Assembly: GCF_003334255.1 (NCBI RefSeq)
Contig: NZ_QOWU01000069.1
Direction: 5' to 3' (one strand)
DNA length: 21,251 bases
Origin: Escherichia coli
GTDB lineage: Bacteria > Pseudomonadota > Gammaproteobacteria > Enterobacterales > Enterobacteriaceae
The notes beneath the pieces were generated by a model. The model searched no databases. It was not told the DNA's origin and saw only the letters and a program-made list of their open reading frames with translations. Numbering within the stretch: the stretch's first letter is position 1; each line of letters opens with the position of its first letter. Made by a program: the position numbers and the translations under genes. Shown here in pieces: positions 14,778-19,477 of the stretch.

Positions 14778-15272
14778 ATGAGTGAATTTTATTCAAGGGC
14801 AGCAACTGTGGCAGACATGCCATTTATCATGGGTGAGTTCGAAGACGGCGCACGCAAAGGTCACTTCTACGAAGAGGTCCTCACATCAAATGTTGGTGAA
14901 ACCTTTGAACAGCAGCTCAGGCTGGCAATCAAGGCGAACGAGCAGGGCCAATACACCGGGCATTTTATCTACATCCTGCTGCGACGTTCTGATGACAAAA
15001 AAATAGGACTAATCTGGTTCTGTGACGTACGCGATCCAACCGGTGTGCCACGACTTGAGCTCCGTGCCGTCAGTATTGTCAAAGAGCTTCGCGGGAAAGG
15101 CTATGGGTCAATGCTTGTGTCCGAAATGCTCGAATCAAACCCTGGCTGGCCAATGATGGCGAGGTGCTACGTCAAATCCTCGCAAATGGCCGACATGCTA
15201 AAACGCAGAGGTTTTTACCTTTTTGGCACGTCACCCAAAGGCACGCAGATGCTGTTTCGCGACCCAAAGTAA
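14778..15272 (+). CDS. GNAT-family N-acetyltransferase
   Basis: 164 aa; AAGGA ribosome-binding site; acetyl-CoA binding motif A-like LRGKGYGSMLVSEML; substrate unknown. Confidence 0.7.
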   Translation: MSEFYSRAATVADMPFIMGEFEDGARKGHFYEEVLTSNVGETFEQQLRLAIKANEQGQYTGHFIYILLRRSDDKKIGLIWFCDVRDPTGVPRLELRAVSIVKELRGKGYGSMLVSEMLESNPGWPMMARCYVKSSQMADMLKRRGFYLFGTSPKGTQMLFRDPK

Positions 15273-15900
15273 AAGATACTGGACCATGCTGGCCGACCAG
15301 AACAGGATAAAGCCAGCATCGACACACTGACTCGCTATGCCCATGCGTGCAGTATCAAAAAACTGTATCACTGGTATAATCTGGTAAAGAGCATATTGAG
15401 AACTTATCATGTCGTCACGCAACTCTATACATGATTTTATAATGCTGCTCCCGGCGCTGCTGTTAGTTGGGTGGTTAGTTTTGGTGATAATTCTCATGTT
15501 TAGGGATGATAAATGTGACAAAACTTACCGTGAAGGTTCGTTTCCCGAATTTATTTGTCTCCATTCTGATCGCTCGTCACTTCGAGAAACCGATTCTGAG
15601 AGACTCATTGTCAAATATACAGAAATACAATCACGAAAATAGGTAAAACCAATAATACTATAGCTAAAAAAATAGTTACTTTTCTGTATCACCCTGTCTC
15701 TCTCTGCTTTTTCATGGCTACTGTCATATTTATGTCTGTTGCGCGGTTTTATCTGTGTATATAAAATACATCTGTATTCATTGTTATCTGAAAATTTGCG
15801 TATGCTGATAAAAAATCCGATTTCTTATTTCCATATTGGCACATTTTTATTATCAGGAAAAAAACGTCATCTTCTGGAATACTGGAAAGCAGAAGTTATC

Positions 15901-16398
15901 ATGCGGGATAAGTTTGTTTTTCACCGGCTTATCAGGAACGGTATGCAGAGGCAGAGAGGTTTTCTTCTGTGGTGGCGTCTGGCCAATGAGATGTTTATCT
16001 CCGGAAACAAAAAACAAAGGAAATGTGCGATAAAGATAAAAAATGCACTCATGGAACGGTATGGATGTGATATCGGCCTGGGCGCGCGGATTGGTAAAGG
16101 CCTCGTGTTGCCTCACCATGCAGGTATCGTCATTCATGGTAATGTTGATATCGGTGAGAATGTCATTATACGGCAGAATACAACCATTGGTGAGAAGGTT
16201 TCTGACAGCAGGGATAACTATATTGTTATTGGCGATAATGTCGATATTGGTGCCCATACATGTATTATTGGGTTAAATGTGAAAATCGGAAGTAATGTTA
16301 AAATCGGGGCAATGTCTTTTATTATGGATGATGTGCCTGATAACTGTACTTATGTCACCAGGAAGGAATCCAGAGTAATAATTCGTGAACAGTCATGA
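15901..16398 (+). CDS. Hexapeptide-repeat O-acetyltransferase (serine acetyltransferase / WcaB-like)
   Basis: Left-handed beta-helix repeats GIVIHGNVDIGENVIIRQNTTIGEK…IVIGDNVDIGAHTCIIGLNVKIGSNVKIGAMSFIMDDVPDN; ATG at 15901 gives the ~165 aa length typical of WcaB-like proteins; the ORF-track start at 15739 is probably an extension. Confidence 0.7.
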   Translation: MRDKFVFHRLIRNGMQRQRGFLLWWRLANEMFISGNKKQRKCAIKIKNALMERYGCDIGLGARIGKGLVLPHHAGIVIHGNVDIGENVIIRQNTTIGEKVSDSRDNYIVIGDNVDIGAHTCIIGLNVKIGSNVKIGAMSFIMDDVPDNCTYVTRKESRVIIREQS

Positions 16399-16497
16399 AA
16401 TAAATATCATCATTATTCTGTTGGTGACTTTGCTGACTGAGATATATACTATCTGTATGTCGTGAATTACATATTAACGATACGCAGAGGTGTGTAT

Positions 16498-17115
16498 ATG
16501 GGCAGTGTCACAAAGAAACCGTCACCTGTTGTTATTATTAAGAAAAAAAGACGAATTCTTTCTCACCAGGATGATGCCGTACAGGCTGTTCCTGATGATA
16601 TAAAACCAGCGCCAGTAATGGAATTTAAAACTGACTCATTACCTCCGGATATACCAGCCACAGTGGTCGGTTCCCCGGAACAACAGAAAAAAACAGGACG
16701 TAAGAAGAAGAAAAAAAAGAAGAACAATGGATGGAGTCATGAATTTATCCGACACAGTCTGGACTGTGTTAAAAAAATATTCCCTCAGTTACGGGCTGAA
16801 GAGGGGGGATATCATGCATTTAAAATTGGCATATCAAAGGATGTCATGGCTTTTATTTCGTCCAGTCCAGAGTGTGGGCTCACAGTAAAAGAATGGGACT
16901 GTGCTGTAAGAATGATTACTGGCGGTTACAAATATCTGCAGCGTATATCAGTCGCAGGTACGCCGCGTTATGGTCTGGATGGCAAAGTTCATGGAACTGT
17001 AACGGAAGAAGAAGCGCAGCATGCGCAGGCAAAACTTGAAAAACACACGCAGCGTTATAACGCCAGGATGAAAGAGACAGAGGATGCTCGCCGCAATCAA
17101 CCATCGACAGACTGA
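16498..17115 (+). CDS. ProQ/FinO-family RNA-binding protein
   Basis: Central domain …IFPQLRAEEGGYHAFKIGISKDVMAF…GGYKYLQRISVAGTPRYGLDGKVHGTVTEEEAQHAQAKLEK has the FinO/ProQ pattern (FP..F, KIGI, YL, RYDL-EG, EE…A). Lys-rich N-terminal segment KKTGRKKKKKKKNN. ATG at 16498 preceded by GAGG. Confidence 0.75.
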   Translation: MGSVTKKPSPVVIIKKKRRILSHQDDAVQAVPDDIKPAPVMEFKTDSLPPDIPATVVGSPEQQKKTGRKKKKKKKNNGWSHEFIRHSLDCVKKIFPQLRAEEGGYHAFKIGISKDVMAFISSSPECGLTVKEWDCAVRMITGGYKYLQRISVAGTPRYGLDGKVHGTVTEEEAQHAQAKLEKHTQRYNARMKETEDARRNQPSTD

Positions 17116-17163
17116 CCCCGGTAACGGCACGAGGTTTTGATGATTACTGTTATTATTTTTGAG

Positions 17164-17427
17164 ATGAATGGCTGGCGTGAATGGACACACCGCGCCCGAA
17201 CAAAGGATGCACAGACAGCCATCATTCGGGCTATGAATAAACATTTTCCACGATCTTACCATTTCGTCCCTGATGATATTGATAATGCACCTGTATTATT
17301 TGAATCTGTAACACGTACACCGAATGTAAAAATAACCGGTCATATCTGGAAACCTATGTGGAACAGGGGAATTTGCTGGAGCGTCAAGGGTCCGTCAGTA
17401 ATTGTCACGCTCATCCAGGGGGATTGA
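17164..17427 (+). CDS. Hypothetical protein
   Basis: ORF 17137..17427 with internal ATG at 17164 (MNGWREW...); no recognisable motifs; start not established. Confidence 0.3.
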   Translation: MNGWREWTHRARTKDAQTAIIRAMNKHFPRSYHFVPDDIDNAPVLFESVTRTPNVKITGHIWKPMWNRGICWSVKGPSVIVTLIQGD

Positions 17428-17479
17428 CATAAAAAACGGTCGTGGGAAATCTGGATTCAGCGACCAGGTGGAACTATTT

Positions 17480-18273: not shown

Positions 18274-18551
18274 TGGAGATATTCTGGACCATGCTGGCCA
18301 GCCAGGACCGGAAGCGCATTCGTGAGTACATTGCGGAGCAGAACCTGATGGCCGCCATTGAACTGGACGAACGAATTGGTTATTCAGCCAGCAGCCTGGC
18401 TGGGCAGCCGTATAAAGGCCGCAACGGTCGTGTGGAAGGTACCCGGGAACTGGTTATTCACCCGCATTTTGTTCTGGTTTATGAGGTCGACAGCCAGTGG
18501 GGAAAAGTGTATATCCTGCGCGTGTTGCATACTGCACAGAAGTGGCCATAG
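18270..18551 (+). CDS. Type II toxin, ParE/RelE-superfamily
   Basis: 93 aa; size, basic character and gene order (antitoxin then overlapping toxin) fit ParE-like toxins; C-terminal region …GKVYILRVLHTAQKW. Confidence 0.7.
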   Translation: MMEIFWTMLASQDRKRIREYIAEQNLMAAIELDERIGYSASSLAGQPYKGRNGRVEGTRELVIHPHFVLVYEVDSQWGKVYILRVLHTAQKWP

Positions 18552-18585
18552 AGGGGCTGTCCGGATATAAGGAGATGCAATAACC

Positions 18586-18801
18586 ATGAATAATGATGAG
18601 CTGGCCACCAGACGTGCGCAGGCGATTGCCGAAGACAGGTGTTTCTCGAAAGGACGTCTGCGCGATGAATCCAGAATGAAACCAGCCCCCGGTGCTGAGC
18701 CGGTTAAGTGGTATAAAAACACTTATGGTGGCAGGTTCGCTGTAGGGGTCAGTTTGGATATGGGAAAATTTTGTACGTTAAGCGCATTATTTAACCAATA
18801 G
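18586..18801 (+). CDS. Hypothetical small protein
   Basis: 71 aa; strong AAGGAG ribosome-binding site before the ATG at 18586; no recognisable motifs; may be a fragment. Confidence 0.35.
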   Translation: MNNDELATRRAQAIAEDRCFSKGRLRDESRMKPAPGAEPVKWYKNTYGGRFAVGVSLDMGKFCTLSALFNQ

Positions 18802-18938
18802 AGATGCATAACGGATTGATTTTGCGTCAACGGCTATCGCTTTTAAATTATCGCCATTGCGGTATTGCATTTAGGTTATCCGATTGAGTTCAAATCCCCT
18901 GAAAACAGCGTATAGCGCGGGAGTACACCCAACCGCGA

Positions 18939-18985
18939 TAACGCAACCGTACAATATTGTTCGTTTCCTAAACACAGCCCTATAA
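18939..18985. repeat. Copy 2 of the ~48-bp direct repeat (degenerate palindrome)
   Basis: TAACGCAACCGTACAATATTGTTCGTTTCCTAAACACAGCCCTATAA; first 22 nt identical to copy 1, then 4 mismatches and 1 indel; two of the mismatches fall in the right palindrome arm. About 40 bp upstream of the acyltransferase gene at 19025. Confidence 0.65.
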
Positions 18986-19024
18986 TTCCGGCAAGTGTCA
19001 TCTGTATTTAAAGGACGTGTGAGT

Positions 19025-19477
19025 ATGAAATTTATGGAATGTGCTGTCCGGGATGTGATTTATGGGACCAATGTCCGTATTGTCAAACCGGTCAACATTT
19101 ATGAATGTGAACTCAGGGACAATGTGTTTGTCGGCCCCTTCGTTGAGATACAGAAAGGCTGTGTCATTGGTAGTGGAAGTCGGATACAGTCGCACACGTT
19201 TATTTGTGAGAACGTAACACTGGGGGAGAACTGCTTCATTGGTCATAACGTGACGTTCGCCAACGATCTGTTTCGTTCAGGAGCACCAGATCCGTCACCG
19301 GATAACTGGATCAGCATTATCCTGGGGGATTCGGTTACTGTTGGCAGTGGAGCCATTATTCTGTCTCCGTATATATGCAGCGGAGCTGTTATCGGTGCGG
19401 GGGCAGTTGTAGTAAAACCGGTTGAGAACAAAGGCATTTATGCAGGAAACCCGGCAAGACTGATCAGAATATTATGA
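19025..19477 (+). CDS. Hexapeptide-repeat acyltransferase (left-handed beta-helix family)
   Basis: 150 aa from the ATG at 19025 (MKFMECAV...); repeats VIGSGSRIQSHTFICENVTLGENCFIGHNVTF and ILGDSVTVGSGAIILSPYICSGAVIGAGAVVV; C-terminal GNPARLI typical of the family. Substrate unknown. Confidence 0.7.
   Translation: MKFMECAVRDVIYGTNVRIVKPVNIYECELRDNVFVGPFVEIQKGCVIGSGSRIQSHTFICENVTLGENCFIGHNVTFANDLFRSGAPDPSPDNWISIILGDSVTVGSGAIILSPYICSGAVIGAGAVVVKPVENKGIYAGNPARLIRIL

Follow-up and report, generated by a model that had tools for sequence, protein, structure and literature searches.

Background

Several described systems lie close to the three predicted acetyltransferase genes considered here, which are found in a 21,251-bp stretch of Escherichia coli DNA (contig NZ_QOWU01000069.1; the whole stretch is hereafter called the window). 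The first gene, at positions 14778–15272, encodes a GNAT N-acetyltransferase of 164 residues that belongs to PHROG 15387, a family present in phage SSU5 and the pHCM2-type phage-plasmids. The second, at 15802–16398, encodes a short, CysE/WcaB/EpsC-like left-handed beta-helix (LbH) O-acetyltransferase of 198 residues; it is named serine acetyltransferase in RefSeq and is called the serine acetyltransferase-like (SAT-like) gene below. The third, at 19025–19477, encodes an LbH N-acetyltransferase of the QdtC/FdtD/WlbB type with 150 residues, named 'acyltransferase' in RefSeq. All three genes lie on the plus strand.

The serine acetyltransferase CysE carries a catalytic Asp-His pair, and the Arg-His of its GDRHP motif binds serine. 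NeuO is the prophage-encoded, cytoplasmic LbH polysialic-acid O-acetyltransferase of E. coli K1, a moron located near phage tail genes. The solved structures that match the third gene product best are QdtC, the dTDP-3-amino-3,6-dideoxy-alpha-D-glucose N-acetyltransferase (PDB 3FS8), a FdtD/WxcM-like enzyme (4MZU) and WlbB (3MQG). Kanosamine is 3-amino-3-deoxy-D-glucose, and the acceptor of QdtC, which has the same 3-amino-gluco configuration, is the 6-deoxy, dTDP-linked form of it. NtdABC of Bacillus subtilis and KabABC of the B. cereus group resemble a gene island that accompanies the third gene on other plasmids.

Results and discussion

Three maintained genes of separate origin

From position 13000 to 21251, the window is 100% identical to plasmid NZ_CP060058.1 of E. 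coli G8, a mobilizable IncK2/Z plasmid of 99.8 kb whose RefSeq annotation contains all three open reading frames (ORFs). All three genes are under purifying selection, and each adds a new, as yet uncharacterised protein to a known enzyme superfamily. On balance, we lean towards the view that they are three independent, intact and selectively maintained genes for acyl-CoA-dependent transferases with separate origins, none of them a known resistance gene or toxin: a GNAT cassette of phage-plasmids, a moron-type sugar O-acetylase (the SAT-like gene) and an N-acetyltransferase orphaned from a kanosamine island (the third gene). The main outcome is that a worry is removed, in that none of the three plasmid genes is a recognisable antibiotic-resistance or toxin gene. 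The overall finding is an ordinary one, with the kanosamine link as its one testable lead.

The GC content is about 0.49 in the GNAT gene, 0.36–0.39 in the SAT-like gene and 0.46 in the third gene. Compared with the same two IncK/IncI-gamma plasmids (our loci L005 and L006), the GNAT gene shows 98% DNA identity and the SAT-like gene 87%. These differences point to different origins, and the first two genes are thus separate modules.

An earlier note, made from the window alone, had presented the three genes as unrelated and cargo-like, beside mobile-element scars. Its family assignments were right (GNAT is supported by Pfam PF00583 and phrog_15387, and both LbH proteins by hexapeptide/LbH models), and its coordinates for the first and third genes are exact, both ORFs being present in the identical RefSeq record. 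For the second gene it gave the correct end, 16398, together with a start at 15901, which is an internal Met; the first 33 residues from 15802 onwards are conserved in relatives (0–1 nonsynonymous against 1–3 synonymous changes), and homologues at 57–67% identity span 94–98% of the 198 residues. The word 'unrelated' holds for GNAT against the other two proteins, but there is remote homology between the two LbH proteins (31% identity over 105 residues, E-value = 2e-7). Scars of mobile elements do lie beside the GNAT gene (an IS66 fragment at 14454–14674 and an IS4 element) and beside the third gene; the SAT-like gene, however, is flanked by neither and belongs to a SAT–FinO block conserved downstream of repA in IncK/IncI-type plasmids, so that 'cargo-like' is only partly right. 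A better picture than cargo beside scars is one of older single-gene modules, with the insertion sequence (IS) and Tn3 elements as later insertions around them.

The third gene and a kanosamine-type gene island

The family profile of the third gene matched QdtC (7.8e-13), FdtD (4mzu; 8e-13) and WlbB (9.2e-11) best, and also the N-acetyltransferase 7s43 and VioB; a search with the single sequence favoured the same solved relatives. Residues E141, N159 and D160 of QdtC, which from the QdtC literature we take to be its active-site residues, align without gaps to E62, N80 and D81 of the third gene product, where they are near-invariant or invariant across 20 orthologues. In architecture, similarity and these residues, the protein agrees with the all-LbH 3-amino-sugar N-acetyltransferases. 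It differs from QdtC, FdtD and WlbB in its length (150 residues against 190–312) and in that no nucleotide-sugar pathway lies near it, the linked island being of the sugar-phosphate (Ntd/Kab) type. The orthologues, in many Enterobacterales and in Photobacterium, are gapless over the 150 residues at 69–92% identity, with a dN/dS of 0.07–0.09. The gene is present at 90% identity or more in about 340 plasmids, and its synonymous sites are near saturation across E. coli, Rahnella and Erwinia (pS 0.6–0.77).

On the IncK2/Z plasmid p1_FT34, the third gene is convergent with an operon for a DegT aminotransferase, a HAD-IIB phosphatase, a Gfo/Idh/MocA dehydrogenase, a SemiSWEET protein and a flavin monooxygenase, the last of which is frameshifted there. 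The DegT protein of this island matched 7kz3 at 6.6e-90 and NtdA at 1.6e-87, the next family being WbpE at 7e-49. The three enzymes are 44%, 37% and 35% identical, in the same order, to those of a kab-type DegT-HAD-Gfo-transporter cluster located beside a non-ribosomal peptide synthetase on a B. thuringiensis plasmid, and the HAD and Gfo/Idh/MocA identities are full-length. As in NtdABC and KabABC, the same three enzymes thus occur in the same order and are followed by a transporter, but the enterobacterial island has SemiSWEET in place of an MFS transporter, and in addition the flavin monooxygenase and the convergent acetyltransferase. The complete six-gene block is colinear in 59 plasmids and exists also in Rahnella aceris p1 and an Erwinia plasmid; in both of these the monooxygenase is intact and the convergent gap measures 31 bp. 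Among E. coli plasmids a decay series is seen, from the full island through the gene with part of the monooxygenase, and the gene with 200–400 bp, to the gene alone.

No part of the island was found in the window or in the roughly 14 kb of the source plasmid downstream of it (record positions up to 45,159). Since the island lies beside the orthologues in the 59 plasmids, Rahnella and Erwinia, the copy in the window is an orphan remnant, and the third gene is probably left over from a gene island for the sugar antibiotic kanosamine. A published study of an enteroaggregative E. coli plasmid points out, without experiments, an ntdABC-like region next to a gene for an N-acetyltransferase (PMC5320562). 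A literature search on kanosamine and ColV plasmids yielded nothing relevant.

Operons of the NtdABC/KabABC type were seen on plasmids of E. coli (IncK and IncF, including pAPEC-O1-ColBM), Klebsiella, E. albertii, Rahnella and Erwinia. Their coordinates are 935–5802 in L008 (NZ_CP132729.1), 7013–11883 in L024 and 7485–12349 in L027; the flavin monooxygenase is frameshifted in L008 and intact in the Rahnella and Erwinia copies.

A Tn3-family terminal inverted repeat of 38 bp, GGGGTCCGCTTGGAAAACGGAAAATATCCCACGCTAAG, occupies 19499–19536, where homology to three other plasmid copies (L002, L004 and L008) breaks off; it begins 21–22 bp past the stop codon of the third gene, in agreement with the 22 bp of the earlier note. 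Intact copies of the terminator read GGGCCGTTACTGGCCCTTTTT. The window retains the left arm and loop of the hairpin (GGGCC GTTACT GG..., 19488–19500, plus strand) and departs after ...ACTGG into the inverted repeat, the right arm and the T-run being replaced by the transposon end. The breakpoint, GGGCCGTTACTGG followed directly by GGTCCGC..., falls within a bidirectional terminator hairpin common to the third gene and the convergent monooxygenase gene. The coding sequence and a promoter-like 5' flank of about 60 bp (18965–19024, plus strand; TATAAT at 18981–18986 and AAGGA at 19011–19015) are intact, but neither the terminator nor the island remains. The plasmid copies (the window and the IncF plasmid L002) become homologous about 60 bp before the ATG. 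Next to the break lies a truncated transposase gene, tnpA (19532–20896, minus strand; NCBIfam transpos_Tn3, 2.4e-189), which covers profile positions 542–953, namely the C-terminal 412 of 954; transcription of the third gene may read into this remnant.

Long 5' gaps in the chromosomal orthologues had suggested a riboswitch or leader upstream of the third gene. This candidate was rejected: a cross-genus alignment of the upstream region revealed no conserved element beyond the approximately 60 bp of the plasmid copies.

Ancestrally, the third gene would have stood tail-to-tail with the operon for the NtdA/KabA-like aminotransferase, NtdB/KabB-like phosphatase, NtdC/KabC-like dehydrogenase, SemiSWEET and flavin monooxygenase, and the Tn3-family insertion on this plasmid would have removed the operon and the terminator and left the gene an orphan. 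Because the QdtC acceptor is the 6-deoxy dTDP form of kanosamine, it makes chemical sense to predict that kanosamine, its 6-phosphate or a derivative is N-acetylated; the enzyme would most likely act on the 3-amino group, and the acetylation would protect the cell. For the third gene, modification of an amino-sugar antibiotic is thus the idea that we favour.

The SAT-like gene

Selection on the SAT-like gene is purifying (pN/pS 0.10 at pS 0.36–0.42). Its product matched phrog_2154 at 3e-63 and remains below the cutoff of every curated model to which it was related: 85.7 bits against 150 for EpsC, 74.1 against 210.65 for CysE (TIGR01172), 62.5 against 397 for PRK11132, and 55.5 against 194.65 and 56.6 against 196 for two WcaB models. 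The C-terminal LbH catalytic domain is common to it and to CysE, WcaB and EpsC. Among solved structures it matches CysE proteins best (1.3e-18); only residues 59–185 align, to the C-terminal part of these proteins, so that the N-terminal helical SATase domain of about 140 residues is missing. In an alignment to Neisseria CysE the catalytic Asp ('DIHP'; here 'CDIG') and His ('DHATG'; here 'PHHAG') are kept, and the 'DRHP' of the GDRHP motif aligns to 'DNYI', Asn-Tyr being read in place of Arg-His. Such a residue pattern suits an enzyme that is active on another acceptor.

At 80% identity or more, the SAT-like gene exists in about 309 plasmids, and in those inspected it lies downstream of repA on IncK/IncI-type replicons. 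Homologues at 59–61% identity are found at the ends of P2-like prophages beside tail-fibre genes, and others at 38–39% identity overlap tail-fibre assembly genes on P1-sized plasmids; such prophage-end and tail-fibre neighbourhoods are the classic spot of lysogenic-conversion genes. The family would thus seem to travel as a moron-like gene among IncK/IncI-type replicons, P2-like prophage ends and P1-like tail-fibre modules. This placement near phage tail genes resembles that of NeuO, which differs in that no specific sequence relationship to the SAT-like protein was shown. By this analogy our best guess is a sugar or polysaccharide O-acetylase. Such an enzyme would most likely act in the cytoplasm, on the precursor of a polysaccharide or on a sugar precursor, and thereby alter a surface structure.

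The neighbour downstream, on the same strand, encodes a FinO/ProQ-domain RNA-binding protein (16498–17115, plus strand; NCBIfam ProQ 1.6e-10, FinO 6.7e-8). In IncK2/Z plasmids this gene and a gene for a 96-residue protein are kept together with the SAT-like gene downstream of repA, and the SAT–FinO pair is conserved in the IncK2/Z plasmid L007. An obligate SAT–FinO operon was considered and rejected: the two genes are co-oriented in the window and in L007, but convergent in both L005 and L006, and therefore do not form an obligate unit. A plasmid ProQ/FinO protein that binds Inc/repZ RNAs has been described, namely FopA (YafB) of pCol1B9 (PMC7491321). The protein encoded here may be a FopA-type regulator of the replicon antisense RNA, the likeness being one of domain and of position near the replicon. 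It carries a lysine run, KKKKKKKKN, and is followed by the 96-residue protein, which has no family, at 17137–17427 (plus strand).

The GNAT gene

The GNAT protein matched phrog_15387 over its full length (9.6e-96) and Pfam PF00583 (Acetyltransf_1) weakly (2.4e-5). Its acetyl-CoA motif, RGKGYG, is invariant at G106, K107, G108 and G110 in the family alignment, and its AlphaFold2 model (pLDDT 82.7) has the GNAT fold; motif A (R/Q-x-x-G-x-G/A) and the alpha/beta fold of the superfamily are thus both present. Structures of SpeG, RimI-like and PAT-like proteins matched the model best (E-value 1e-8, TM 0.6–0.73). The dN/dS of 0.04–0.46 indicates purifying selection. The family is small: a full hidden Markov model scan found 239 of 1.84 billion representatives, only seven of them below 1e-30, and a word-index search found 27 clusters.

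The gene and its 68-bp 5' flank form a block of 565 bp (14710–15274, plus strand) that is 91.7% identical in DNA to pHCM2 and to an Enterobacter plasmid, both of the SSU5/pHCM2 phage-plasmid type, with homology ending 2 bp past the stop codon. A clean block with GNAT alone indicates transfer of the gene as a one-gene cassette. A copy at 85% protein identity is also present in phage SSU5. Only 14 plasmid records hold the gene at 90% identity or more and about 324 at 60–90%; those inspected among the latter are non-mobilizable IncFIB plasmids of about 106–111 kb from Salmonella (pHCM2), Enterobacter and Klebsiella, namely SSU5-type phage-plasmids. In all three phage-plasmids examined its place is fixed, in the order repA, a 214-residue protein (phrog_2105) and GNAT. 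The copy in the window, a full-length member of PHROG 15387, differs from these in residing on a mobilizable IncK2/Z plasmid instead of a phage-plasmid. The cassette appears to have been swapped between SSU5/pHCM2-type phage-plasmids and a few IncK/IncI-gamma plasmids, and so illustrates one-gene exchange between phage-plasmids and conjugative-type plasmids. Its product, which should move an acetyl group from acetyl-CoA onto an amine, is a predicted acetyl-CoA-dependent N-acetyltransferase with a phage-plasmid function, and we commit ourselves only this far.

Two functional candidates for the GNAT gene were rejected. An IncN variant plasmid has a distant relative (24% identity) in the interval from nuc to traI, the place given to fipA in the literature. 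R46 holds at the fipA position a DUF6710 gene on the opposite strand, so GNAT is not FipA and the idea of fertility inhibition is unsupported. A functional tie to the fatty-acid/polyketide-like cluster upstream was rejected because the GNAT–SAT block is found without that cluster in other plasmids.

The distant relative (L019, 3977–4471; NZ_CP136829.1) occupies the exact slot of the DUF6710 gene of R46 (L022, 14184–14810), which is a known insertion hot-spot. The closest relative outside the core family (L034 and L035, about 5001–5498) lies within a phage-plasmid-like element at a variable site, where the neighbours swap among genes for a Lit-like peptidase U49, an R2K-domain protein, AAA_13 and DUF4225, resembling a defence hot-spot. 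Its position next to genes for AAA_13 and the Lit-like peptidase hints at defence or counter-defence, but PADLOC gave no hit.

In the AT-rich gap between the GNAT and SAT-like genes lies an unannotated ORF of 77 codons with one predicted hydrophobic membrane helix (15409–15642, plus strand). It is intact in L005 and L006, and its pN/pS of 0.6–0.96, on very few changes, gives no evidence of constraint; its status is uncertain.

Alternative explanations

A number of observations weigh against the reading given above. The structures tell little: the AlphaFold2 model of the third gene product was poor (pLDDT 63), and Foldseek returned meaningless beta-helix matches, none at an E-value of 0.001 or below, so this route was dropped. 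The fold matches of GNAT are generic and do not discriminate substrates, searches of the PDB and of viral folds yielding only generic GNATs; GNAT matched no solved structure by sequence (best E-value 0.02) and has no informative neighbour gene. The SAT-like gene was never within a polysaccharide cluster in the contexts examined, where it adjoins replicon, FinO-like and phage tail genes, so that its surface-modification role rests on position and analogy. As to the third gene, orthologues at 69–84% identity are solitary in Pantoea, Mixta, Edwardsiella, Photobacterium, Rouxiella, Brenneria and Erwinia persicina, the Bacillus ntd/kab clusters have no such acetyltransferase, the solved enzymes nearest to it act on nucleotide-linked sugars, in contrast to the sugar phosphates of the Ntd pathway, and it is convergent with the operon and not co-transcribed.

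We put forward only tentatively that the third gene encodes a 3-N-acetyltransferase of kanosamine or a derivative, giving immunity or resistance, and that many virulence and resistance plasmids of E. coli, Salmonella and Klebsiella (IncF ColBM-type, IncK) either make a kanosamine-type amino-sugar antibiotic through an NtdABC-like operon or retain just the orphan immunity gene. The convergent orientation, the solitary state of the gene with variable neighbours in seven of nine genus-level contexts outside E. coli and Salmonella, and the excess of the roughly 340 plasmids with the gene over the 59 with the whole island would also suit a stand-alone detoxifying or housekeeping acetyltransferase of Enterobacterales, whose adjacency to the kanosamine operon on some plasmids is a historical accident. 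This is possible but doubtful: the same six-gene order and the 31-bp gap persist in replicons of E. coli, Rahnella and Erwinia despite the near-saturated synonymous sites, the best structural relatives are specifically 3-amino-sugar N-acetyltransferases, and orphan copies far in excess of producer loci are also expected for an immunity or resistance gene. It is rather unlikely that the gene is instead a tailoring enzyme of the island, acetylating the product of N-oxygenation of the amino sugar by the monooxygenase to give the final metabolite. The monooxygenase gene indeed ends the operon, directly next to the acetyltransferase gene, and its Erwinia copy has FMO-like and faint Lys/Orn N-oxygenase Pfam matches, but the third gene is oppositely oriented, has its own promoter-like flank and is widely kept, with purifying selection acting on it, where the operon is missing or has decayed. 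If the third gene does acetylate kanosamine, it would provide a new resistance or immunity function and point to the production of amino-sugar antibiotics by E. coli plasmids; immunity to kanosamine, if true, would mean an unrecognised system of small-molecule competition among gut Enterobacteriaceae.

For the SAT-like gene, its RefSeq name, the CysE proteins as best solved matches and the retained Asp/His pair would agree with a genuine serine O-acetyltransferase that boosts cysteine synthesis of the host. Against this stand the score of 74 bits under a cutoff of 210.65, the missing helical domain, the Asn-Tyr in place of the serine-binding Arg-His, and relatives at phage tail-fibre and prophage-end positions; such a function is distinctly unlikely, and the label 'serine acetyltransferase' is probably wrong. 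The earlier note had further allowed for resistance and toxin functions. The GNAT and LbH superfamilies do include resistance enzymes, but it is highly unlikely that one or more of the three genes is a resistance acetyltransferase of a known class (AAC, CatB/XAT, Vat or Sat). The CatB and Vat models gave weak LbH-repeat matches of about 25–31 bits against cutoffs of 300–450 (CatB, 29.2 against 350; Vat families, 26.7–31.4 against 300–450), none of the three genes reached a curated NCBIfam cutoff (CysE, WcaB, EpsC, CatB or Vat), and neither GNAT nor 10 remote relatives of it had any NCBIfam match, AAC included. For this part of the source plasmid the AMRFinderPlus/RGI track of PLSDB has no resistance gene listed, although it does list such genes on R46. 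Known resistance enzymes are thus excluded by sequence comparison. The chance that GNAT is a tRNA-acetylating type II toxin (TacT/AtaT/ItaT-like) is smaller still. Its size of 164 residues and its plasmid location would fit, and toxin–antitoxin pairs are common in the region (yacAB at 18004–18551), but the mobile unit 14710–15274 contains GNAT alone, and directly upstream on the same strand there is neither an ORF of at least 60 residues in the window nor an annotated gene in the IncK/IncI-gamma relatives. A one-gene cassette without an antitoxin makes a toxin of a toxin–antitoxin pair very unlikely. An adjacent cognate antitoxin and similarity in sequence or fold to TacT, AtaT, ItaT or KacT were both lacking: solved toxins are among the structures to which GNAT has no sequence similarity, none of its 50 best Foldseek matches is described as a tRNA-acetylating toxin, and PADLOC gave no hits.

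Of the other functions raised in the earlier note, surface modification is plausible for the SAT-like gene and not for the other two, and modification of small molecules or xenobiotics survives as the amino-sugar-antibiotic idea for the third gene. Its caution that the sequence leaves the substrates unfixed was justified, and the tools used here narrow the options. The note had named matches to housekeeping enzymes with an established substrate as speaking against its view, and no such match was found.

Other features of the window

RefSeq gene positions were transferred from NZ_CP060058.1 to the window with an offset of 9908. The source plasmid has its repA some 24 kb upstream of the GNAT gene. 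Between the two come a Tn3-family transposon, elements of the IS110 and IS66 kinds, a biosynthetic cluster of 12 kb, an IS4 element and, finally, an IS66 fragment. The last of these, a partial transposase gene (14454–14674, minus strand; NCBIfam transpos_IS66, 1.7e-8), forms the left boundary of the conserved GNAT/SAT block, and homology to L005 and L006 begins at 14675. Upstream of the third gene, RefSeq annotates the RelB/RelE-type toxin–antitoxin pair yacA/yacB (18004–18551, plus strand; NCBIfam RelB/DinJ and RelE/StbE). Between the FinO block and yacAB is the C-terminal fragment of a serine recombinase/resolvase (17620–17895, plus strand; 91 residues), an old transposon scar, and the stretch common to the window and pED1a starts at about 17503.

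An Rfam scan of the window between 14 and 20 kb gave no match, and a promoter/terminator scan of 14600–19600 found no more sites than in shuffled sequence. In the IS-rich left end of the window, a group II intron (domain V/VI) match in Rfam at 691–767 (minus strand) scored 41.8 bits, barely over the gathering score. The 12-kb biosynthetic cluster (1964–13166, plus strand) is bounded by IS66 and IS4 elements and encodes a short-chain dehydrogenase/reductase (SDR), an acyl carrier protein, a FabZ-like dehydratase, a ketosynthase, a PfkB-family kinase, a LolD/LolCE-like ABC transporter, a LolA-like protein, a crotonase and several proteins without a family. Its ketosynthase also matched the cispentacin models AmcF (5e-43) and AmcE (1e-6), and the cluster looks more unusual than the three acetyltransferases.

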